From Escherichia coli (GTDB taxonomy: Bacteria; Pseudomonadota; Gammaproteobacteria; Enterobacterales; Enterobacteriaceae), in the NCBI RefSeq assembly GCF_003334815.1, contig NZ_QOWO01000063.1: a stretch of 9,120 nucleotides of DNA, one strand, 5' to 3'. The translations under genes and the position numbers were made by a program. Under the pieces are notes generated by a model. The model saw only the letters and a list, made by a program, of their open reading frames with translations. It made no database searches and was not told the origin of the DNA. Shown one piece after another: positions 1 through 9,120 of this stretch. Position 1 is the first letter of the stretch. Every line of letters begins with the position of its first letter.

Positions 1-94
1 AAAAAATCGGCTCAAACATGAAGAAATGAAATGACTGAGTCAGCCGAGAAGAATTTCCCCGCTTATTCGCACCTTCCTTAAACCCGATACGCTT

Positions 95-1390
95 TTGATC
101 AATAAAGTCCATGCAGAAAGCCTAAGGCTTGATTGGCTGGCTAAGACCACGCCTCCAGTCGCTAGTGTTCATCCTACCGTGCCTCTTGCCGCTCCTGCCC
201 CTACTATCGATAACGAGTATGTTAATCGAAAGTATTACACTAAGAATCTGTCGTGGTTATGCTCTGAATATCTAAAGCATCGGCGCAAGGGCAAGGTATC
301 GGAGTCGGCTATAAGTGATATCCGTAACTATTTCAGCTTTATGATCGAAGCGATGGGTGACATTCAGTTGGAAGATTTTGATCGCGATTTCCTCCGGGCT
401 TATGAGAGCAAACTGCGCACGATCCCAGCAAACCGTAATTTAGTCAAAGCTAAATATGGAGTGAAAACGCTGGATCAGTTAATCGCCAAAGCGGCAGAAT
501 GCGGCGATAAATTGATGACTGAGGAATCCGTTAGGAAGTATATCAACGGCATTTATGGTGCAATGAAGTGGGCTGTTGCTGACGGTAAGCTACTGAAATC
601 GCCATGCGAAAACTTTTTTCCATCCGATGATAAAGATGAGCGAGATCAGGATCACACTGACATATTTGAACCGCATGAAATTAAAGCGATTTTTTCGTTA
701 CCGTGGTTTGAGGCTGGAACTGTTGAACGCAATGCGCAAGGGCGATTCCATCAATATTGCCCGTTTAACTATTGGGCAATATTGATGGGCTTGATGACGG
801 GGGCGCGAGTTAATGAAATCGCTCAGTTACTGCTGAGTGATGTTCTGGCAGACGACGGCGTCTATTATTTGAACCTTGAAAGCGATAATGAAAGCGGAAA
901 GAAACTCAAAAATGCTAATGCTCGCCGCAAGATTCCGCTCCATTCAAAGCTGATTAGTCTCGGTTTCATCGACTACGTGAACGCCTTAAAAGATGCAGGG
1001 TATACCCGTCTCTTCCCGGAGCTTAAACCACATAAAACAAAAGGCTATGGTAGGCCAGTTTCCGCATGGTTCAATGAATCGTTGCTTGCGGGGCGGTTGA
1101 AACTCGAGAGGAACAGAAGCAAATCTTTCCATTCTTTTCGCCACTCAGTTTCGACTTTGCTCAAGGAGAAGGGCGTTAGCTCAGAATTACGAGCGCAGCT
1201 ACTTGGGCATGTGCGCGGCGAAACTGAAACGGAAGTGCGATATAGCAAAGACCTCAAACCAATTCATATGATTGAAGTCGTGGAGAAAATTGATTTTTCG
1301 TTACCTGATATAGCGGAATTCAACATTCCTGACGGGCTGGATGCTGTCAGAGATGCGTTGCGAAGAAAGCGTGGCAAACAAACAGGTTGA
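95..1390 (+). CDS. Tyrosine recombinase / phage-type integrase
   Basis: Long ORF whose C-terminal half carries the tyrosine-recombinase catalytic signature: LMTGARVNEIAQ (box I Arg), then HSFRHSVSTLL ... LLGHVRGETETEVRYSKD (H-x-x-R, His, catalytic Tyr). The first in-frame start is TTG at 95 (in-frame stop at 32..34) with no clear SD; GTG at 179 and ATG at 341 are alternatives, so the 5' end is uncertain. Confidence 0.8.
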   Translation: MINKVHAESLRLDWLAKTTPPVASVHPTVPLAAPAPTIDNEYVNRKYYTKNLSWLCSEYLKHRRKGKVSESAISDIRNYFSFMIEAMGDIQLEDFDRDFLRAYESKLRTIPANRNLVKAKYGVKTLDQLIAKAAECGDKLMTEESVRKYINGIYGAMKWAVADGKLLKSPCENFFPSDDKDERDQDHTDIFEPHEIKAIFSLPWFEAGTVERNAQGRFHQYCPFNYWAILMGLMTGARVNEIAQLLLSDVLADDGVYYLNLESDNESGKKLKNANARRKIPLHSKLISLGFIDYVNALKDAGYTRLFPELKPHKTKGYGRPVSAWFNESLLAGRLKLERNRSKSFHSFRHSVSTLLKEKGVSSELRAQLLGHVRGETETEVRYSKDLKPIHMIEVVEKIDFSLPDIAEFNIPDGLDAVRDALRRKRGKQTG

Positions 1391-1423
1391 ATCAGTTACT
1401 ATTCAGTTGAGTGATGCTTGAAT

Positions 1424-1455
1424 GCGCTGGGACGCTTCCTGGCGCGTTTTTTATT
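1424..1455 (+). terminator. Rho-independent terminator downstream of the integrase
   Basis: GCGCTGGGA / TCCTGGCGC stem (9 bp including two G-U pairs, 4-nt loop CGCT) followed immediately by TTTTTTATT at 1447..1455; lies between the convergent integrase and the 1523..1855 gene. Confidence 0.45.
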
Positions 1456-1522
1456 AAGGGTGGTGGATTTCATAGTGCTGAATTTGGAGACGCTCAAAAC
1501 ACGTTTGGTGAAACTTGATGAC

Positions 1523-1855
1523 CTACGATTGCACCCGCAGCCCTTCTACGCTTTCTGATGGTAGATTTATCACTGTTTTAATGCTGGCCTCTATGTTGCC
1601 AATGATGTCTTCGCGCGGGCCGCTGCGCCAGTCATCGCTTGCGTAAAAAGCGTCGAGAACCGTAGTCATGCTTTTAGGGCTGACAAAGGCGCGAATCAGG
1701 TAATAGCAGTCCGGGTCATGCAGAGAGTTACCAAACGAAACAACATCGATCCCGTGGCGTTGGTGTAGGGGAACACTGATTTCCTGCATAATGGCGTGAA
1801 AAGCGGCACCGCTGCCTTTGCGTAAGGTGTATTGCAGTATCTCGACGGTTCTCAA
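1523..1855 (-). CDS. Small dimeric alpha/beta-barrel protein, NIPSNAP/ABM-like (hypothetical)
   Basis: 110-codon ORF; the N-terminus MRTVEILQYTLRKGSGAAFH resembles the beta1 motif of NIPSNAP/stress-responsive alpha-beta barrel proteins. TTG start at 1855 with a GGAG 8 nt upstream on the minus strand; an out-of-frame ATG (1860..1858) is followed by a stop after two codons. Confidence 0.5.
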   Translation of the reverse strand: MRTVEILQYTLRKGSGAAFHAIMQEISVPLHQRHGIDVVSFGNSLHDPDCYYLIRAFVSPKSMTTVLDAFYASDDWRSGPREDIIGNIEASIKTVINLPSESVEGLRVQS

Positions 1856-2828
1856 AGCATTATCTCCGCGTCGCCTCTGGACGGCTCCCTTGTTGATAGC
1901 AATAAAGTAAACCGGACTGGGCCATGAAGCTACTGCTAATCAGACAGTCATCCGTAAGCAAAAGCTGCGATATGCGGTTCAAACGCGCTGTAAGGCTCTC
2001 TGGCGAGTGTTTTAAAGAAGGTAGTCGAAATCATGGTGCAGAATTCGCGGCGCTCTCATAGAGTGACTGGCGAAGCCAGTTGAAACAAGCGTAGCGGAGT
2101 TCGAGCAATCAATGAGAAATCTGGGCGAGCTTTAAGCTTTACCGCGCTTCTTAACTTTTGAGTCTGTTTGGCTCTATAAGGATAAGCCTGCCGCCGTGGA
2201 AATTTTCGGACGCTATGCCTGAGAGGGGCGCTTCCAAACCTAGGGCATCCACTTTTTCGCTCCCAACTTATCTGGCTGCATTTACACCGCGAACACGTTG
2301 AACGTTAGCAGCTTCTGGTTCGTATTTGGTTGTTACGCAGGAGAGGTAAAAACGGCAGGTTTACTTTTGACGGCAACGCCATAAGACACCAAACAGCAGA
2401 GAAGTGTAATTGTTAAAAATGTTAAAACATAACTTGTTCTTTAAGATGTAAACCCTTCCTCGGGGGGGAAGCCGGACATATCAACCATAAGGCCATCTGA
2501 GAAGATAGCCTGTAGGTTGCTCGGTTCCCCTTGCCAGATGAAGATCAAGTCTTCCTCGTGGTGTGACGACCTTTCTTGAAAGATGCATTATGCGCAAAAG
2601 AAGCTACTCAAGAATCCGCCGATAGCTACTTTCACCCTCTGCTTGGCTGCATCAAACGCTTGCGCGCCCTACCTACCACAATCAACGTTACGCAGAGTTC
2701 CCATCCTGACGTCTTCCGCTAAACAGCGGTGATCTCCACCTACCCGGACCGGTTTACCGCATGAGGTAGGTGTCAGGAGAGAAGCTAGCACACCATCATT
2801 TTAAAGAAAAGTCATATATATCATATGG

Positions 2829-2851
2829 CTGCGTTCATATTCTGAACGCAG
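2829..2851. repeat. Perfect 9-bp inverted repeat (CTGCGTTCA-N5-TGAACGCAG) just downstream of the DUF1643-like gene
   Basis: Read directly: 2829..2837 is the reverse complement of 2843..2851. No adjacent T-tract on either strand, so it is more likely a protein-binding site or RNA hairpin than a classical terminator. Confidence 0.5.
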
Positions 2852-2860
2852 TTATCGATG

Positions 2861-3327
2861 TTAACCTAAAGGTATGAGAACACTGTCGTTTTTCATATAC
2901 AAAGGGTGCTTCGGCTCACCTGTAGCGTTTAAGACGAAGCACATTGTGCTCTCTGGCAATAGCTGTCGGACGGTCGTTGAGCGTTTGAGGTGTCTTCCTT
3001 CATTTCCCCATGCGGCGACAACCAGTCCGGCACCGCTAACAAGACGTATCAAGTGGCTATCGTTATCTTTGCCAATGGGATCAGACGCTTTCATCATTTC
3101 ATGTCGCTGGGTGTGAACGAATGCGAACAGGTTGGCCATGTATACGCCACCGTAGCCCCAGCTTTTGGCAAACGATATGCAGCGGCTCAAGGTGCGATCA
3201 TCCTTCTCAGCATCGGCGTATGAAGGGTTTAGCCCTATGAAAAGGGCATATGGTTTTGATTCGTCCCAGACTCGTGATAACGAGTAGCGATATTGACCGC
3301 ACGGTGAAAAATCGCGTCTTTAATCAT
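2861..3327 (-). pseudogene. DUF1643-family gene interrupted by a frameshift in a homopolymer run (or N-terminally truncated product from TTG 3190)
   Basis: The 2861..3190 ORF translation contains SRCISFAKSWGYGGVYMANLFAF ... VAAWG ... GEPKHPLY, matching the DUF1643 pattern as I remember it. The same frame continues upstream (KPYALFIGLNPSYADAEKDDRTL, also family-typical) to a stop at 3320..3322 with no start codon. An ATG with an AAGGA SD 8 nt upstream sits at 3327..3325 in another frame and terminates after 30 codons. The two frames meet at the A5 run at 3307..3311; adding one base there gives a continuous ORF of about 155 codons. Confidence 0.5.
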
Positions 3328-3398
3328 TTCGGTTGTCCTTATGAAGTGATGGTTTCAGCCTAACATGTCTTTATCCGTTTTAAGCGCCAACAAACGAC

Positions 3399-3499
3399 CG
3401 TTTTCTGGCACCTCCCAATCGCACGCTTTCACACTGTTGGAAAAATAGCCTTGGCTTTTCTGGCAGGCCATCCTAATGTTGGCCTCGTTTTCTGGCAGG
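3399..3499 (+). promoter_or_regulatory. Three direct repeats of TTTTCTGGCA upstream of the serine recombinase (candidate res-like or operator region)
   Basis: Core TTTTCTGGCA at 3401..3410, 3456..3465 and 3488..3497 (flanks cgTTTTCTGGCAcc, gcTTTTCTGGCAgg, cgTTTTCTGGCAgg). A small inverted repeat AGGCCA-N9-TGGCCT lies between copies 2 and 3. The last copy ends about 22 bp before the recombinase ATG. Confidence 0.4.
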
Positions 3500-3519
3500 G
3501 GTCAGATGGGGAGATAACA

Positions 3520-4080
3520 ATGGCAACTTTTGGCTACGGACGTGTTTCGACATCGCAGCAGGATACTGAGAACCAACGGCTGGAGCTTGGGCAGGCTGGG
3601 TGGCAAATTGATTACTGGTTTGCCGATGTTGTTAGCGGGAAGGTTCCGGCAATGCAACGTAAAGCATTTTCTGAAATGCTCAATAAAATCCGCGATGGTG
3701 AAACGTTGGTGGTAGCGAAGCTTGATCGTCTGGGGCGTGATGCGATTGACGTCTTGCAAACGGTAAGGGCGCTGGCTGACCGTAATATCAAGGTTCTTGT
3801 CCACCAGCTTGGTAACACAGATCTCACTTCTGCCGCTGGGAAGTTGCTATTATCTATGCTCGCCGCGGTTGCGGAGATGGAGCGTGATCTGCTGATTGAG
3901 CGCACTCAGGCGGGACTATCACGAGCAAAAGCCGAAGGTAAGAAATTGGGCAGACCTCCTAAAATCGCGTCAGAAGCCCGTAGAGAGATTTTAGAGAAAA
4001 AGAATAGCGGTTTGAGTATCAGTGCGTTAGCGCGTCAATATGGCGTTTCAAGAGCGACTGTAGCAGCTATTACCGATTGA
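3520..4080 (+). CDS. Serine recombinase (resolvase/invertase family)
   Basis: Translation from ATG 3520 (GGGGAGA SD about 6 nt upstream) begins MATFGYGRVSTSQQD with the catalytic Ser motif, then LVVAKLDRLGRD and a C-terminal HTH (GLSISALARQYGVSRATV) after a GRPPK linker. This is the classic small serine recombinase architecture. The ORF-track start at 3451 is an upstream in-frame extension without an RBS. Confidence 0.9.
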   Translation: MATFGYGRVSTSQQDTENQRLELGQAGWQIDYWFADVVSGKVPAMQRKAFSEMLNKIRDGETLVVAKLDRLGRDAIDVLQTVRALADRNIKVLVHQLGNTDLTSAAGKLLLSMLAAVAEMERDLLIERTQAGLSRAKAEGKKLGRPPKIASEARREILEKKNSGLSISALARQYGVSRATVAAITD

Positions 4081-4093
4081 ATATGGAGAGTTT

Positions 4094-4939
4094 ATGGCTT
4101 ACACAGCAACTGTTATCCCTGTAATGATTGCTTCTCCTGGTGATGTCGCTGAAGAGAGACAAGTCATTCGTGAAATGATCCATGAGTGGAATGATATAAA
4201 TTCAGCTCGTTCAAAAGTAATGTTGACACCAATTGGATGGGAAACTCATACATCACCCGAATTAGGAGTTAGGCCTCAGGAGTTGATTAATCAAAGATTA
4301 TTAGTAGATTGTGATTTATTAATCGGTGTGTTTTGGACTCGTCTAGGCTCACCGACTGGGAACGAGGCCAGCGGAACAGTCGAAGAAATCCACCGTCATT
4401 TGAATGCGGGAAAACCGGCAATGATTTACTTTTCCTCAAAGCCTGTTGCCCCTGAAAGCCTTGATAGAGAACAATATGAGTCTCTTAAATTGTTCAAAAC
4501 TGAGTGCATGCAAAAGGGATTGATAGAGTCTTTTAATGACTTATCTGATTTCAAAGAAAAAGTCCGTAGGCAACTTTCGATAATTATTTCTAGTAGCCCT
4601 TATTTGTCTTCTCTTATATCTACCATTAACAATTCTCCTGATGCGAATACAAGTCAATCTTTGCCAGAAAGTAATTTGTCCGCCGATGCACTCAGTTTGC
4701 TGAAATTAGCATGTGTCGATGATAGCGGAACAATTTATGTGATAAGGCATTTAGGTGGCACGGATATTCAAGCGGGAAATCAATCCTTTGGTGGAAGTTC
4801 GGCTAGAGAGGTAGCCCGTTGGGAGGGCGCACTTAACGAACTGTTATCCTTTGATTTTGTGATTGAAAGAGGGGCAAAAGGACAAATGTATTATGTTACT
4901 CATAAAGGCTGGACATTTCTTGAATCTTTAAATGAATAA
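4094..4939 (+). CDS. Hypothetical two-domain cargo protein; N-terminal domain resembles a DUF4062/TIR-like Rossmann-type domain, C-terminal domain unknown
   Basis: ATG 4094 with GGAGAG SD; starts 13 bp after the recombinase stop. The N-terminal segment VMIASPGDVAEERQVI ... LVDCDLLIGVFWTRLGSPTG ... GTVEEIHRHLNAGKPAMIYF fits the strand-helix pattern and conserved acidic/ER and CD motifs I associate with DUF4062-type domains (from memory, unverified). The gene is visibly more AT-rich than the recombinase. Confidence 0.55.
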   Translation: MAYTATVIPVMIASPGDVAEERQVIREMIHEWNDINSARSKVMLTPIGWETHTSPELGVRPQELINQRLLVDCDLLIGVFWTRLGSPTGNEASGTVEEIHRHLNAGKPAMIYFSSKPVAPESLDREQYESLKLFKTECMQKGLIESFNDLSDFKEKVRRQLSIIISSSPYLSSLISTINNSPDANTSQSLPESNLSADALSLLKLACVDDSGTIYVIRHLGGTDIQAGNQSFGGSSAREVARWEGALNELLSFDFVIERGAKGQMYYVTHKGWTFLESLNE

Positions 4940-4999
4940 TTAAATGCGAGGTCATTACATAAGTTTATTTTTGATGTTAGGGTGAATTCCCTCACATTT

Positions 5000-5494
5000 T
5001 TATTCGAAAGAGGCCGCAATGACTTCTCCTGTTTTTGCGTTGAAAACACAAAAGTATTGAAGCGGAGCTAGCATCCCCAAGCTGTTAACTACCTTAGCTT
5101 GTTGCCCAAATGCCTGAATAATCTTCGCGTTCTCATCGTGCCAGAGATAAGTATTAAATACAGGCGCTTCGCTTTCTTGCCACACATGGCGAAACTTCGC
5201 TTTCTCATCCATTACCTTTTTGCACTCCCTGACCGGGTTATGGTGCGTTTTCGCATAGCATTCCGGGTTGTCATCTGCACATACGATATCTTTTCGTGCT
5301 GTCTGATGCTCAGCACCTACAGCAGAAAAGGCGCATACGCCCAGCACCAATGAGAGAGTGCCCAGAGCACCCCATACAGTTGCGCGTAGCGTGCTGATGT
5401 GCTGCTTTGATACAGCATGGGCAACTACACTATAACTGGCCCAGCTAATCGCGGCTCCCGCTGCAATCGGTAATAAAAAGTCTGCTCCCGTCAT
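5000..5494 (-). CDS. Small membrane protein, two predicted TM helices plus a Cys-containing C-terminal domain (hypothetical)
   Basis: ATG at 5494 with GAGGG SD 5 nt upstream on the minus strand. Hydrophobic segments ADFLLPIAAGAAISWASYSVVAHAV and ATVWGALGTLSLVLGVCAFSAVGA are followed by a soluble domain with several Cys. The ORF-track start at 5551 is an extension without an RBS. Confidence 0.6.
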   Translation of the reverse strand: MTGADFLLPIAAGAAISWASYSVVAHAVSKQHISTLRATVWGALGTLSLVLGVCAFSAVGAEHQTARKDIVCADDNPECYAKTHHNPVRECKKVMDEKAKFRHVWQESEAPVFNTYLWHDENAKIIQAFGQQAKVVNSLGMLAPLQYFCVFNAKTGEVIAASFE

Positions 5495-5554
5495 GATTCC
5501 CTCACTTTCCAAACCACATCGCGCCTGATAGCGAACGCTGGTGACGCCCAACCG

Positions 5555-5568
5555 ATGATGATCATCAT
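5555..5568. promoter_or_regulatory. Perfect 14-bp palindrome ATGATGATCATCAT in the divergent intergenic region (candidate operator)
   Basis: Read directly; self-complementary across the 5561/5562 centre. It sits about 60 bp upstream of the membrane-protein start and about 165 bp upstream of the XRE regulator start. Confidence 0.4.
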
Positions 5569-5734
5569 ACTTGTTGGGTTTTAAATGTCACCATTGGTGT
5601 TTGTTTTGAATCAAAAAGGATTGTCATGATACAGCCGATGAATGCTAGTGACTAAGCTCGCTGAAGTGAGATTGGATTCAAAATATCTCATATGGAGCGT
5701 GGCCTTACAGTGGTCAAAATTGCACATTCAGTGC

Positions 5735-6199
5735 ATGAAAAAATCCCTGAGAATACAGTTTGGCGAGCGGGTAAAAGAACTGCGCATTGCCACCGGATTG
5801 AGCCAAGAGGCCTTTGCCGATCGGTGCGGGTTTGCACGTAGTTATATGAGCAGAATTGAACGTGGTGGCTCTAATGCGTCTCTGGATGCGATTGAGGTGC
5901 TGGCTAACGCTCTGAGCGTTGAGCCGTGGCAGTTGTTAGCGCCTGGCCCATCTGAAGATAACGACTCGGAACTGTTGGTTCCATACGCAGCCGATGGTTC
6001 CTGTTTTCACCCCGGTTTGGCGAGCACCCGTGATGGTTCGTTTGGCGTAGGTGATAAAGCGGCTCAGAAGCGTTTTGGCACGTTTGCTGAAGCTCTTGAG
6101 TATCTTCGTAGCATGGAGACAGCAAAATGGCGTAGGCCTAATCCTAGCGGCAACTGGGGTATCGTATCAGCGGTTCGGTGGGACAAACTGAGAAAGTAG
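5735..6199 (+). CDS. XRE-family (Cro/cI-type) helix-turn-helix transcriptional regulator with an uncharacterised C-terminal domain
   Basis: MKKSLRIQFGERVKELRIATGLSQEAFADRCGFARSYMSRIERGGSNASLDAIEVLANALSVEPWQLL is a textbook XRE HTH. The start was chosen at ATG 5735 because the HTH then sits at the N-terminus; no good SD at either 5735 or the ORF-track start 5642, so the start is uncertain. Confidence 0.75.
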   Translation: MKKSLRIQFGERVKELRIATGLSQEAFADRCGFARSYMSRIERGGSNASLDAIEVLANALSVEPWQLLAPGPSEDNDSELLVPYAADGSCFHPGLASTRDGSFGVGDKAAQKRFGTFAEALEYLRSMETAKWRRPNPSGNWGIVSAVRWDKLRK

Positions 6200-6678
6200 C
6201 TCAAGTGTAAGTTTATGAATTTTTATGCTGTATGGATGAACAGTATTCATTAGATGCTGATAGTCTTATGTTTCATCAGCCCTTTGTTTCTATAAGAGTG
6301 AATAAAACAGCAAAATGCGGGTGCGTTACGGTGGCGTTTCGCTTTGGCTCTTAATGGCTTAATTCATATAAATAACATTGAGTTAAATAGTTATTCTGAA
6401 CAAGGTCTGCCGGGGTCTAACTGGTTTCAAAATCCGAACGCAGTGGCGTTTATTCAACGTCCACATAGCTGACAAATGTTCTTTCCTCCCGACTCGGCAG
6501 ACCTCCAGAAACATTAAAAGGCAGGTATGGCACGTTGATGTTTTATGCCGCCACGAACACTCGGTTTGATTCCGTCCAGCGGATCAAACTTAATATGTAG
6601 CCCCTAGAACAAAAAGGTCCTACGATTGCTCTCTTAACAGCTAACAGGAACGTGATTACAGCAGGTTATAGAGACTTA

Positions 6679-6703
6679 GGTTCGAGTCCGGCCTTCGGTA
6701 CCA
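6679..6703 (+). repeat. tRNA-Leu 3'-end-like sequence (T-loop, acceptor 3' strand and CCA): candidate att direct repeat / island junction
   Basis: GGTTCGAGTCCGGCCTTCGGTACCA matches the 3' end of enterobacterial tRNA-Leu(CAA) (leuX type, recalled as ...CCGGTTCGAGTCCGGCCTTCGGCACCA) with one mismatch. The upstream sequence cannot form the rest of a cloverleaf (the T-stem 5' strand is TTAGG, not GCCGG), so this is a 3' fragment, not a gene. Confidence 0.55.
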
Positions 6704-7236
6704 AGTTACTAAATTCCTTACAATACAGTTAGTTAGACGATTAAATCTGTCTCTTTTGCCTGTAAGAAATGCTCTGTTATGTCCCTTGAAAAAGCCGCTG
6801 TGGTTGATAGTGGTAATTGGGATGTTAACTCATAGCGGCGTGTCGTTCCAAGCGTCAAACACGTACTGACTCAACTTGAAAGCTATGACGTAGCCACCGT
6901 CTCTAAACAATCCCAAAACTTTTAGTGCAGCGCATTTTAGCCCGATGCCCCCATTCTGTCGCCGTCGCGAGACGCCGCAGGGGATAAACAGGTTTATGGT
7001 GGTCACGGTACTTGCAGACCATATGCAAGCTCTGCCAGCGGTTCGGCCTCGCTCCCCTTGGGTACATGGTCATCCTGATAAGCCTCACTAACTGACATAA
7101 CCCTGATGAAGTCGCAAGAGGCTCCGCTTGTTGTCTTACCACCAACGGGGCTTTATGGATTCTATTGCTTAATATATGATTGTATCAAACTTAGACTGCA
7201 TAATTTAAACGAACATAACAATCAGGCAGGGGAAGA

Positions 7237-8061
7237 ATGATAAAGCCATTTTCTGTGAGGTATGGTCATGTTGACGTTAGAGAGCATGTCCAGCTGAATG
7301 ATCTTAATTCTGATACACGCATGGCATTGTGGAATTGCTTATATCTTTTCCTTTGGACTAACAATCGTCAAACTGCTACAGCAACAAAATGTGCGCAGTC
7401 TGTGTGGATATATTATCTAAATCAACCTGCGGATAATATTCCTCGTTATGAAAGTGGATACAAAAGTGATAAGACGTTGCTGACTGCTATCCGAGATTAT
7501 ATATATGGGGAAGCATGGTATTTGGTATATGATTTAATTGAGTTCATCATTGAGAGAACTAATTCATATATTAATCTATCGAAGCATCTCAATTCCATCT
7601 TTAAAAAGCATGGCGTTGGTTATACCATAATAAATGGTTGTATTACTCCTATTTCAAATGATAACGAAATTGAAAGTGTTCAGAACGCAGTTGATAATGG
7701 CACTGATTCATCGCGTAGCCATTTCGAAAGGGCGTTACAACTAATGACGGATAGAGAGCAGCCAGACTACAGAAACTCGATTAAAGAGTCTATCTCTGCA
7801 ATTGAATCTTTATGCAGGAAAATCACGGGCAATGATAAAGGAACCTTGGGGGCTTGTCTTAAAGCTATAGAGGAAAAAGGATATATACACTCTGCAATGA
7901 AAGGCGCTTTTAGTCAGCTCTATGGTTATACAAGTGATCAGGGTGGAATACGTCATGCGCTAACAGAAGAAGATGTAAATCCTACCTTAGCTGAAGCTAA
8001 ATTTATGTTAGTCACTTGCAGTGCGTTCAGTAATTATCTGTTGTCAAAAATAAGTGATTAA
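7237..8061 (+). CDS. AbiJ-like abortive-infection protein (AbiJ N-terminal-type domain plus C-terminal HEPN-like domain), putative
   Basis: ATG 7237 with GGGGAAG SD. The N-terminus FSVRYGHVDVREHVQLNDL ... RMALWNCLY fits the FS-x-R-x-G ... LWN pattern I associate with AbiJ N-terminal domains. The C-terminal part has PDYRNSIKESISAIESL ... GYTSDQGGIRHALTEED ... AKFMLVTCSAF, typical of the linked HEPN-type domain. Family assignment is from memory, not a search. The gene is strongly AT-rich. Confidence 0.5.
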   Translation: MIKPFSVRYGHVDVREHVQLNDLNSDTRMALWNCLYLFLWTNNRQTATATKCAQSVWIYYLNQPADNIPRYESGYKSDKTLLTAIRDYIYGEAWYLVYDLIEFIIERTNSYINLSKHLNSIFKKHGVGYTIINGCITPISNDNEIESVQNAVDNGTDSSRSHFERALQLMTDREQPDYRNSIKESISAIESLCRKITGNDKGTLGACLKAIEEKGYIHSAMKGAFSQLYGYTSDQGGIRHALTEEDVNPTLAEAKFMLVTCSAFSNYLLSKISD

Positions 8062-8079
8062 TTACAGGTTTATAGTTAC

Positions 8080-8114
8080 GAGTGGGTTAGTTACCCACTC
8101 CCTTTAAAATTATT
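8080..8114. terminator. Candidate bidirectional terminator between convergent genes
   Basis: Perfect 8-bp stem GAGTGGGT / ACCCACTC (8080..8087 and 8093..8100, 5-nt loop) followed by CCTTTAAAATTATT; lies between the stop of 7237..8061 and the stop of the 8110..8682 minus-strand gene. Confidence 0.4.
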
Positions 8115-8682
8115 CACCAGACTCTAATCTTTTTTCTCTTTTCTCATCTCTCCTTTTTATTGCCAAATCGTGTTGCTCTTGCAGATACGTGCGTTCTTCG
8201 TTTCTATCGCTTGAAGTATATACGTCTGCTTTTACTTTTTTAGCTCCTTGTGCAATAGGTTTCCAATCCTCTCTTATACCTTTAATTTGTTCTGCAATTT
8301 GCGTCAATGGGCTTCTCGCTCCTAGATAACTTATTCCTTCAAATGTCGCCATGTCATACACATATTCATTTGTTTCTCTATCGTTTGATTTAGGTTTGCT
8401 TGCCCAGCTTATATTAATATTATAAATTTGATCTTTGATTTGTTCATACTTACAGAGATTGCTGGTAAGTGATTGCCCATTTTTTAACACGCTTACCTTA
8501 CTAAACGGAATCTCACTTTTTTCTCTATGCTCCGCATTTACTAGTGGAGGATCAAACACAACCTCAACATTATAGGCAGGTGCGTTCCCTGTATTAGCAA
8601 TGTTAATATCAAAGTAAAAAGCGGCCCAAGGGTTTGGCTCAAGTGTTACAACTATATGGGGTTGAGCTGATGCGTCAACCAT
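8110..8682 (-). CDS. Hypothetical protein (AT-rich cargo gene, no recognisable family)
   Basis: Start assigned to ATG 8682..8680 (MVDASAQPHIVVTLEP...). The ORF-track extension to 8736 would run into the IS terminal repeat and is therefore unlikely to be native. The C-terminal tail is Lys/Arg/Glu-rich. Confidence 0.5.
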   Translation of the reverse strand: MVDASAQPHIVVTLEPNPWAAFYFDINIANTGNAPAYNVEVVFDPPLVNAEHREKSEIPFSKVSVLKNGQSLTSNLCKYEQIKDQIYNINISWASKPKSNDRETNEYVYDMATFEGISYLGARSPLTQIAEQIKGIREDWKPIAQGAKKVKADVYTSSDRNEERTYLQEQHDLAIKRRDEKREKRLESGE

Positions 8683-8710
8683 TCTTTTTGTCTCGTCTGC
8701 TCTGAAGTGG

Positions 8711-9045
8711 TGAAGTGGTTTACTGAATTTGGCCACCTGAACAGAGGTGATATGCTCACCTCAGAACAACACAGGTGCTCCAATGAAAAAAAGAAATTTT
8801 AGCGCAGAGTTTAAACGCGAATCCGCTCAACTGGTTGTTGACCAGACATACACGGTGGCAGATGCCGCCAAAGCTATGGATGTTGGCCTTTCCACAATGA
8901 CAAGATGGGTCAAACAACTGCGTGATGAGCGTCAGGGCAAAACACCAAAAGCCTCTCCGATAACACCAGAACAAATCGAAATACGTAAGCTGAGGAAAAA
9001 GCTACAACGCATTGAAATGGAGAATGAAATATTAAAAAAGGCTAC
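8711..9045 (+). mobile_element. IS3-family insertion sequence (IS911-like), left end with terminal inverted repeat and orfA; truncated/interrupted at 9045
   Basis: The terminus TGAAGTGGTTTACTGAATTTGGCCACC begins with the TGAAGTGG...GGCCACC pattern I recall for IS911 ends, and the downstream sequence encodes an IS911-type OrfA. An extra TGAAGTGG copy sits immediately upstream at 8703..8710. Confidence 0.75.
8783..9045 (+). CDS. IS3-family (IS911-like) transposase OrfA (HTH/leucine-zipper N-terminal protein), 3' end disrupted by insertion
   Basis: Translation [88 protein letters not shown] is near-identical to IS911 OrfA as I remember it. After codon T (9044..9046) the reading frame continues into unrelated sequence. 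Confidence 0.8.
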
Positions 9046-9120
9046 TGTAGATTCAATCTGTCAATGCAACACCCCTTTCAATTATCTCTTTCGGTGTTTT
9101 GAACTTCAGTGTCTTTCTCG
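9046..9120 (+). mobile_element. Terminus of an IS30-family element inserted into the IS911-like orfA (continues beyond window)
   Basis: The sequence from 9046, TGTAGATTCAATCTGTCAATGCAACA, resembles the IS30 terminal inverted repeat (recalled as TGTAGATTCAATTGGTCAACGCAACA). The junction is exactly where IS911 homology stops. Confidence 0.5.

Follow-up and report, generated by a model that had tools for sequence, protein, structure and literature searches.

The tRNA-Leu gene leuX of Escherichia coli was described as hotspot #37 in a survey of E. coli defence islands (Hochhauser et al. 2023, PMC10121019; reviewed in PMC12707154), and is on record as the defence hotspot with the highest occupancy in E. 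coli. According to that survey, 68% of the occupied cases hold no recognisable phage, satellite or conjugative machinery (PMC10121019), and the mode of mobilisation was left open. We here analyse a 9,120-nucleotide stretch of E. coli DNA (contig NZ_QOWO01000063.1 of assembly GCF_003334815.1; "the window" below means this whole stretch), which is the leuX-proximal part of hotspot #37 and encodes a tyrosine integrase, a small serine recombinase and candidate anti-phage genes, among them a DUF4062 gene. With the hotspot it shares the position between ahr/yjgR and fec, as well as a content of defence candidates together with an integrase and a recombinase, with no phage, satellite or conjugative machinery. 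For this one common configuration, we could define a concrete anatomy, comprising the ends of the island, two islands in tandem, three cargo slots and a proposed resolvase site with its res-type joint.

Several described systems resemble parts of the window. KpLE2 of K-12 also lies at leuX, and its junction of the insertion sequences (ISs) IS911B and IS30D, leading to the fec operon, is 98% identical to window 8711-9120. The interval between leuX and IS911, however, is unrelated, with no blastn match; K-12 has intB, IS2, yjgX, yjgZ, IS4 and nanXY, and the window's 636-amino-acid (aa) integrase and its cargo differ from those of K-12. In SGI1, experiments have proven a Tn3-like res, whose boxI spans 28 bp around an AC centre and which clears tandem copies of the island (PMC12217951). 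The window resembles SGI1 in having a serine resolvase-like gene within an integrating island, a res-like region directly upstream, and a 28-bp box centred on AC that lies about five helical turns from the next subsite, and tandem island copies are the natural substrate (PMC12217951). Unlike SGI1, the island described here is far smaller, has no replication or mobilisation genes, and targets tRNA genes rather than trmE; moreover, the evidence concerns the fusion of two different islands and not the removal of identical copies. The best solved relative of the recombinase is the gamma-delta resolvase (full-length alignment, 1.4e-25), and the site layout is also res-like; unlike Tn3 and gamma-delta, the module is embedded in an integrase-driven island, with no Tn3-family TnpA (DDE transposase) open reading frame (ORF) in the window or related loci and no matching terminal inverted repeats. 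Finally, the hotspots of P2 prophages and P4-like satellites likewise have conserved backbone genes flanking slots of interchanging AT-rich defence genes. The window differs in having no hallmark genes: PHROGs matches were limited to the integrase, the recombinase, the regulator and unknowns, and no PHROG, NCBIfam or annotation match was found to P4 primase/helicase alpha, sid/psu/delta or cos.

Our results make it probable that the window is a stack of mobile pieces brought together by four processes, namely integration, turnover of cargo slots, presumed resolvase action and IS activity. The hypervariability of the locus was known before, tandem integration at tRNA genes, AT-rich defence cargo, truncation by ISs and Tn3-type resolution within islands (SGI1) are all of known kinds, and AT-rich foreign segments stacked at a tRNA gene are a textbook, ordinary finding; what the res-site joint and the definition of the element family add to this is modest. 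If the resolvase truly fuses neighbouring islands, this would provide a simple route to recombine defence repertoires where no conventional mobile element is recognisable. One site-specific step would then reshuffle left and right defence cargo, and this would help explain the diversification of the majority at hotspot #37 that appears to lack any mobile genetic element (the "MGE-less" cases). The analysis also flags two single-gene defence candidates, the DUF4062 protein and the AbiJ-NTD4/PDC-S32 protein.

An island delimited by leuX and a copy of its 3' end

Megablast with the whole window showed that positions 78-9120 are 99.9% identical to many chromosomes, including that of strain E94, where the region lies directly downstream of leuX, with valS, pepA, lptFG, yjgR and ahr upstream and the fec operon downstream. 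We compared the window to a reference set of 5,426 complete E. coli genomes, counting a segment as present when at least 80% of it was covered. The whole window was found in 285 of these genomes, and four separate searches with parts of it gave unequal frequencies:

78-3440: at least 80% coverage in 581 genomes
3441-4990: at least 80% coverage in 384 genomes
4991-6703: at least 80% coverage in 440 genomes
6704-8710: at least 80% coverage in 467 genomes

The first island (island 1) extends from the integrase to a helix-turn-helix (HTH) regulator gene, and is bounded on its right by a repeat of the leuX end. The features that define its ends are:

78..1390, plus strand: tyrosine integrase, 3' two-thirds of a 636-aa gene (E94 annotation, Pfam, PHROG; GC 45.7%)
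6597..6614, plus strand: GTAGCCCCT-NNN-ACAAAA motif, putative arm-type integrase site in the right arm (single match in the window against 0.04 expected)
6679..6706, plus strand: attR core, a 28-nt copy of the leuX 3' end (27/28 identical), right end of island 1
6707..7168, unstranded: segment G, about 465 bp, non-coding, placed in other strains directly between the genuine leuX and different cargo

The intact integrase gene in E94 begins 90 bp past leuX, and its product contains the Pfam domains DUF6538, Phage_int_SAM_5 and Phage_integrase (PHROG integrase, 3e-32). The initial annotation had pointed to a tRNA-like repeat in the right half of the window, and this repeat is real: its core (6681-6703) matches the leuX 3' end with 1 mismatch and extends to 28 nt at 6679-6706; 200 shuffles gave 0 matches, and ARAGORN found no complete tRNA gene in the window. 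A 300-bp probe spanning the repeat was complete in 286 genomes. Where it matched partially, either its right part was joined to the genuine leuX or its left part to other DNA, and the junction breaks in other genomes fell within 6679-6704. In strain PE164 the order is leuX-G-AbiJ-NTD4-DUF8453-IS911-IS30, with no integrase element. The arrangement in PE164 and the breaks at the repeat therefore indicate that island 1 is an independent unit placed between leuX and a second island. An integrase adjoining the tRNA gene, a distal repeat of the tRNA 3' end, and presence/absence breakpoints at that repeat, by which tRNA-targeting islands are recognised, were thus all found.

The GTAGCCCCT-NNN-ACAAAA motif recurs at the left end just upstream of the integrase start (about 11374-11400 in locus L001), and a related motif is found at both ends of the thrW element of strain UTI89. 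Judging from this arrangement, these repeats are likely arm-type integrase binding sites.

The second island and the insertion sequences

To the right of the repeat lie segment G, two AT-rich genes and IS sequences, and the left end of the window is also an IS end:

7237..8061, plus strand: AbiJ-NTD4 domain protein, PADLOC candidate PDC-S32
8110..8682, minus strand: hypothetical/DUF8453 protein, convergent to the AbiJ-NTD4 gene
8711..9044, plus strand: IS911, leftmost 334 bp (insO fragment 1), truncating island 2 (98% identity to IS911B of K-12, beginning at the annotated left end of the latter)
9045..9120, minus strand: IS30 end inserted in IS911 (same junction as in K-12; E94 annotation)
1..77, unstranded: terminal 77 nt of IS5 (100% identical to the IS5A end of K-12)

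Segment G is 95.5-96.7% identical in two other loci (L004 and L007), with similarity stopping at 7167/7168. It follows the genuine leuX in strains 98218 and E2348/69, among others, where it precedes different genes, and in about 170 genomes it is present without the AbiJ block. A tblastx search of G against all fetched loci matched other G copies only, and we rejected the idea that it is an integrase remnant. In E2348/69, G is followed by another gene, a DUF8453 homologue (70%), a serine recombinase of a second type and a DEAD-box helicase. Positions 6707-8710 are best read as the left part of a G-type island, which IS911 truncates 28 bp ahead of the start of DUF8453.

The AbiJ-NTD4 protein matched PDC-S32 at 5.6e-104 (residues 3-272 on profile positions 8-281 of 285) and Pfam AbiJ_NTD4 at 3.8e-26. 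No Pfam domain was found beyond residue 153 and no solved relative was found, so that a C-terminal HEPN nuclease domain of the AbiJ type was not seen. The DUF8453 gene has 70% aa and 75% nt identity to a gene in L007 (phrog_11802, 2e-81), and its product had no Pfam match.

The IS5 end adjoins TTAA (78-81) in the integrase gene and splits this gene at about codon 200, where E94 carries the uninterrupted sequence ccggtaATTAAacccgat. The junction between IS5 and the integrase gene was present in 0 of the 5,426 complete genomes, and the insertion is therefore private to the source strain.

Turnover of cargo slots within the element

Strain comparison, which the initial annotation had proposed as a way to find variable segments, showed that different strains lack different parts of the window. 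In addition to PE164, which has no island 1, both UTI89 and O157:H7 keep the backbone of the element and differ in the genes between. One gene that both lack is:

4094..4939, plus strand: DUF4062 (TIR-like) protein with a variable C-terminal region, single-gene anti-phage candidate (Pfam, PADLOC; slot 4068-4999)

UTI89 has a 168-bp spacer where 4068-4999 lies, and a UvrD-helicase and AAA-ATPase pair in place of 1856-3391. In O157:H7, two unrelated genes replace 4077-5674, which holds the DUF4062 gene and a small membrane protein gene; identity between the window and O157:H7 is 83% over the integrase, 92% from the NIPSNAP-family gene to the recombinase stop (4076) and 89% over 5675-6704. DUF4062 homologues with 59-83% aa identity fill the same slot in three other genera. 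With the slot empty in UTI89 and occupied by other genes in O157:H7, the DUF4062 gene appears to represent turnover of a cargo slot inside the element, and not accretion at the tRNA gene. A 21-nt inverted repeat (4068-4088/5455-5475), considered as a cassette boundary, matched no strain breakpoint and was taken as chance.

DUF4062 is a TIR-like NADase defence family whose members combine a conserved core with a diversified auxiliary region, and a catalytic E97 was reported in a Klebsiella DUF4062 protein (bioRxiv 10.64898/2026.05.01.722283; 10.64898/2026.06.25.731849). The window protein shares with the Swarozyc and Evangelion systems an N-terminal TIR-like DUF4062 domain, a variable auxiliary region and a defence-island setting, and its GTVEE motif puts a glutamate at residue 97 (E97/E98), as read from the sequence and not from an alignment. 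It differs from these systems in its weak Pfam DUF4062 match (3e-4, residues 10-99) and in a PADLOC match (PDC-S60, 5.8e-27, residues 8-167) limited to the N-terminal domain of the 906-position model. In another E. coli locus (L006), the C-terminal third of the gene (4562-4894) could not be aligned, with flanks 92-93% identical. This suggests that the C-terminal third may be a swapped or fast-evolving sensor region, and it fits the conserved core and diversified auxiliary region of DUF4062 defence proteins.

A res-like site at the joint of hybrid islands

The serine recombinase gene is preceded by sequences that resemble a res site:

3384..3411, plus strand: res site I-like 28-bp imperfect palindrome GCGCCAACAAACG-AC-CGTTTTCTGGCAC, proposed resolvase crossover site
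3399..3497, plus strand: three same-strand copies of CGTTTTCTGGCA (at 3399, 3454 and 3486), putative half-sites of res subsites I, II and III
3520..4080, plus strand: small serine recombinase, 186 aa, resolvase-like (GC 50.3%)

The arms of the palindrome (dyad) are symmetrical at 10/13 positions, and the site lies about 130 bp ahead of the recombinase ATG. When the best dyad was sought without bias in 29 loci from many genera, 26 yielded this site, always with AC at the centre and at a distance of 134-136 nt from the ATG; in two distant loci (L036 and L037) both arms co-vary, to CGGAATACG. The CGTTTTCTGGCA 12-mer has no other matches in the window, and its copies are spaced by 55 and 32 bp, which is comparable to the subsite spacing in the res sites of Tn3, gamma-delta and SGI1 (PMC12217951). 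The putative site II has a weak left half, TGTTGGAAAA, and the site III dyad is indistinct, with half-site copies at +55 and +87 bp.

The dyad is also where unrelated sequences meet, a recombination joint that the initial annotation had not noted. Homology to several variants starts at 3388-3393, and in 20 loci of different genera with unrelated left flanks, conservation begins abruptly at the left arm of the dyad. Four unrelated left flanks meet an identical right-hand module within 2 bp at the palindrome centre, and when types of left flank and types of right module are tabulated, all four combinations occur. The clearest case is strain 98218 (locus L004), with the order leuX-G-gene-res-recombinase-DUF4062-membrane-HTH-repeat. 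This hybrid is 99% identical to strain S1, which has the second recombinase type and, equally far from the ATG of that gene, a dyad of its own, over the 150 bp up to the dyad centre, and 100% identical to the window over the 120 bp from there onward (dyad at 7944-7971 in L004, and at 6181-6208 in another locus, L098). The hybrid junction region was covered to at least 80% in 90 genomes. The hybrid pattern is as expected if a resolvase had acted on the res sites of two tandem leuX islands and deleted the DNA between them.

An alternative view is that RecA-dependent homologous recombination between backbone genes, together with IS activity, suffices to explain all variation, the serine recombinase at most resolving multimers. 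Two observations fit this: slot boundaries fall at gene ends with no flanking sites, as in the gene-flanked hotspots of P2/P4 type, and divergence shifts along the backbone in a manner typical of homologous recombination. Against it stand three findings at the joint: four unrelated left flanks abut one identical module within 2 bp of the centre of a 28-bp palindrome, flank and module types occur in all four combinations, and the switch in L004 from S1 to window sequence falls exactly at the centre, where the presumed parents are only about 69% identical over the 13-bp arms, too little for RecA. This argues against a homologous-recombination origin of the L004 junction, and we regard RecA and IS activity as rather unlikely to be the whole explanation.

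Base composition separates backbone from cargo

The initial annotation had read the window, by eye, as a strong compositional mosaic of at least three independently acquired segments, which accreted stepwise at a tRNA hotspot. The window as a whole has 44.8% GC, against 53.0% across 11.2 kb of adjacent core genes (53-55% GC; GC content at third codon positions, GC3, 0.56-0.69). The integrase, NIPSNAP, recombinase, membrane protein and HTH genes have 45.7-52.5% GC, with a pooled GC content at synonymous third positions (GC3s) of 0.467; of their description as moderate to GC-rich only the first part holds, as none is GC-rich relative to the host. The two regions singled out as AT-rich are indeed so: the DUF4062 gene (4094-4939) has 40.1% GC and a GC3s of 0.286, and in the block 7237-8682 the AbiJ-NTD4 and DUF8453 genes have 37.2% and 37.5% GC and GC3s of 0.291 and 0.259, respectively. 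GC3s thus falls into tiers of 0.61 in the core flank, 0.47 in the island backbone and 0.26-0.29 in the cargo. The backbone differed in GC3s from the DUF4062 gene (p = 5e-8, Fisher test) and from the AbiJ block (p = 3e-12, Fisher test), and the claim of a different codon choice was upheld by permutation of synonymous codons (p ≤ 0.001 for each AT-rich block against the backbone).

Targeted tests at individual boundaries gave a mixed picture. GC content changed significantly between the recombinase and DUF4062 genes (50.1 vs 40.1%, p = 1.5e-4), between the DUF4062 gene and the membrane-HTH stretch 5000-6199 (p = 6e-5), and between 6704-7168 and 7169-8710, that is, from G to the AbiJ block (48.0 vs 37.2%, p = 4e-5). 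At the tRNA repeat the step was not significant (42.3 vs 48.0%, p = 0.086), and the step sits some 465 bp to the right of it. The IS sequences (42.9% GC), which had been called different again, differ weakly from the AT-rich block (p = 0.04) and are close to the backbone (about 46-48%) by a comparison without a formal test. Among the boundaries named initially, the one between recombinase and cargo is thus both structural and compositional. The tRNA repeat marks a structural boundary without a compositional signature, and the IS911 end, too, is a structural boundary with little compositional contrast; the differences in codon usage and GC3s are those between backbone and cargo.

Unsupervised change-point analysis (block permutation, and dynamic programming with a Bayesian information criterion penalty) retained a single breakpoint at about 7150 (46.5 vs 38.4%), and this step at about 7150-7170 falls at the junction of G with its cargo. 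The mosaicism is real yet moderate, and given the single breakpoint it cannot be called strong. Furthermore, the two AT-rich blocks were not distinguishable from each other (p = 0.86 for GC3s, p = 0.88 for codon usage), and composition alone therefore gives two foreign classes, backbone and cargo, beside the host, and not three donors. The contrast between these classes is a trait of the whole element family: in 17 related loci from other genera, backbone genes have 44-53% GC whatever the GC content of the host (49-61%), and filled cargo slots 33-47%. Strain comparison reveals more boundaries, and reveals them more strongly, than composition does; it is strain comparison that bears out the separate mobility of the segments and their stepwise accretion at the tRNA hotspot, with the exception of the DUF4062 gene, for which slot turnover is the better account.

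Could the whole 9 kb have been acquired once, in a pre-assembled form, with GC differences that are merely gene-specific? Defence genes are generally AT-rich and the AT-rich genes here are all defence-like, so that function or selection may explain a contrast between backbone and cargo that recurs in every host; the two AT-rich blocks cannot be told apart, and 285 genomes hold the complete arrangement at 99.9% identity. A single acquisition is nevertheless very improbable in view of PE164, which has no island 1, of O157:H7 and UTI89, which keep the backbone without the DUF4062 gene, and of the occurrence of G with other cargo. The frequencies of the segments also differ (285, 384, 440, 467 and 581 genomes), as does identity to O157:H7 from the integrase to the HTH arm.

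A proposed course of assembly

Taken together, the boundaries suggest the following course. An element of about 7 kb would have entered the 3' end of leuX by means of its tyrosine integrase, ending at the 28-nt repeat, and would now sit ahead of an older or independent island made of G, AbiJ-NTD4 and DUF8453. Slots between the backbone genes of such elements, themselves of about 45-52% GC, would exchange AT-rich genes of 33-42% GC, mostly anti-phage candidates, as presumably happened here with the DUF4062 gene after the resolvase gene. The Tn3/SGI1-type res upstream of the resolvase gene would normally collapse tandem copies of the element, and where two different islands lie in tandem at leuX, it might join them through the central dinucleotide of site I, giving rise to hybrid islands. 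IS911, itself hit by IS30, would have removed the right part of island 2 and joined the remainder to the fec region as in K-12, and the private IS5 copy split the integrase gene, so that island 1 is now probably immobile.

Several points weigh against this course of events. The PE164-like genomes could have lost island 1 by excision, gain and loss not being polarisable without a strain phylogeny, and UTI89 could likewise have lost the DUF4062 gene. Around the DUF4062 cassette we found no repeats or target duplications, and homologous recombination between backbone genes is an equally possible cause of slot turnover. Subsites II and III of the res site are proposed solely from repeated half-sites. 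The centre of the S1 dyad is TT, against AC in the window, and mismatched central dinucleotides normally hinder strand exchange by serine recombinases; the true parent of the hybrid may have differed from S1, or the event may be rare. The defence role of the cargo is predicted from family membership and PADLOC candidate models, and the unsupervised analysis of composition backs one boundary only.

The assembly just outlined takes the serine recombinase to be a resolvase. Its NCBIfam and PHROG matches are to invertase/resolvase families, and one could picture instead a DNA invertase of the Hin/Gin/Mpi kind that switches adjacent cargo genes: the best NCBIfam match is the Mpi master invertase family (6e-28, below cut-off), the best PHROG family is named "DNA invertase", and Gin is the fourth-best solved relative. 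An inverting enzyme is highly improbable here, since the window has no second crossover-like site (the next best scores 15/22, equal to the shuffle mean), the three 12-mers lie on one strand within 100 bp upstream of the gene in the layout of a res site, and neighbouring genes were never found in opposite orientation among the fetched annotated loci L003-L007 and L017 (blastn). That the window has no meaningful compositional structure, beyond ordinary gene-to-gene noise, is scarcely credible: only one breakpoint survives unsupervised segmentation and several named boundaries are not significant, but the backbone and cargo differ in GC3s and codon usage at the levels given above and do so again in the 17 related loci.

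Backbone genes and the element family

The remaining features of island 1 are the following:

1523..1855, minus strand: NIPSNAP-family gene, backbone (RefSeq annotation)
1856..2860, unstranded: ORF-free stretch, conserved spacer or empty cargo slots (ORF list)
2861..3327, minus strand: DUF1643 gene, frameshifted pseudogene (RefSeq annotation "frameshifted")
5000..5494, minus strand: small membrane protein, backbone (RefSeq; phrog_20749, 1e-102)
5735..6199, plus strand: HTH regulator of XRE or control-protein type, backbone (PADLOC control-protein models, 1.9e-18)

These genes belong to a recurring order: tRNA gene, integrase of about 640 aa, NIPSNAP, variable genes, DUF1643, recombinase, variable genes, membrane protein and HTH regulator. 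The same order was found at thrW in UTI89 and NCTC9080, with a whole tRNA-Thr copy at the right end, and at glyU in three E. coli strains. Beyond E. coli, where the recombinase was surveyed with one genome per species, the same architecture lies at tRNA-Gly, -Thr or -Leu genes in Enterobacter, Kosakonia, Yersinia, Ewingella and Pluralibacter, and at tRNA-Gly in Pseudomonas. The recombinase is 84-92% identical in Enterobacter, Kosakonia, Citrobacter, Yersinia, Ewingella and Pluralibacter, 71% in Pseudomonas and 60-66% in Oxalobacteraceae, and the frame of tRNA gene, integrase, recombinase and HTH regulator is kept in the loci of Enterobacterales and Pseudomonas. The NIPSNAP gene is 93.8% identical in the UTI89 thrW element and its product 83-87% identical in other genera; aa identities are 67-84% in other genera for the membrane protein and 79-94% across Enterobacterales for the HTH regulator.

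It is possible, and we put this forward tentatively, that the elements with this pairing of integrase and resolvase are a separate and widespread family, whose small members integrate at tRNA genes and carry defence cargo, and whose res site tidies tandem copies and fuses different stacked islands. The literature that could be searched held no account of such a family or of res-centred hybrid islands, but its coverage is incomplete, so that novelty is not proven; nothing relevant was found on NIPSNAP together with an integrase or island, on DUF1643 or on PDC-S32.

In Oxalobacteraceae (L047, L060, L092, L094 and others), the recombinase relatives are found no more than about 1 kb away from tRNA genes (Arg/Pro, His, Thr, Val), and no integrase was detected there with the E. 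coli query. These loci could represent a more distant offshoot of this type of element. On the plasmids pPS2C_136kb and pYLMB10a (L011 and L012), a module of DUF1643, recombinase and membrane protein genes, in part with the HTH gene, lies without an integrase between IS1 copies, within the mobH relaxase region of these large plasmids; the backbone segment 4991-6703 had 108 plasmid matches in total. In thrW elements, a 304-aa hypothetical gene stands between the HTH gene and the tRNA copy at the right end (9502-10416 in L005, 7552-8466 in L015), and the hybrid leuX island has a 304-aa gene between G and the res site (L004 6190-7104), likened to the former by length alone.

The DUF1643 gene has an intact homologue in L006 (phrog_3230, 9e-51), and its frameshift, together with the integrase gene split by IS5, suggests that island 1 is decaying in place. 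The neighbouring stretch of about 1 kb (1856-2860) contains no ORF of at least 50 aa on either strand, and is covered to at least 80% in 586 genomes, without annotation among the matches listed. It is 95.7% identical to O157:H7, above the flanking genes (about 92%), and pieces of it (1980-2087, 2091-2332 and 2829-2860) border cargo genes in the glyU elements. The stretch may consist of empty cargo slots or of regulatory spacers. We rejected a structured RNA, as the core 2091-2332 folds worse than shuffles (z = +1.8, both strands), and also a decayed copy of the 337-aa gene found at the same place in glyU elements, to which there was no tblastn match.

An Rfam scan of the window gave no credible RNA family, its sole match being mir-230 (E = 0.14) inside the integrase gene. 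This weak match overlaps a perfect 15-nt inverted repeat with an 11-nt loop in the integrase coding region (748-788), which may be chance or a regulatory hairpin. Lastly, a 9.85-kb contig labelled "MAG: Collinsella sp." (JAIJJM010000048.1, locus L018) encodes all nine island proteins at 99-100% identity and in the same order, starting from tRNA-Leu; its assignment to the actinobacterium Collinsella is almost certainly a binning error for a contig of E. coli.

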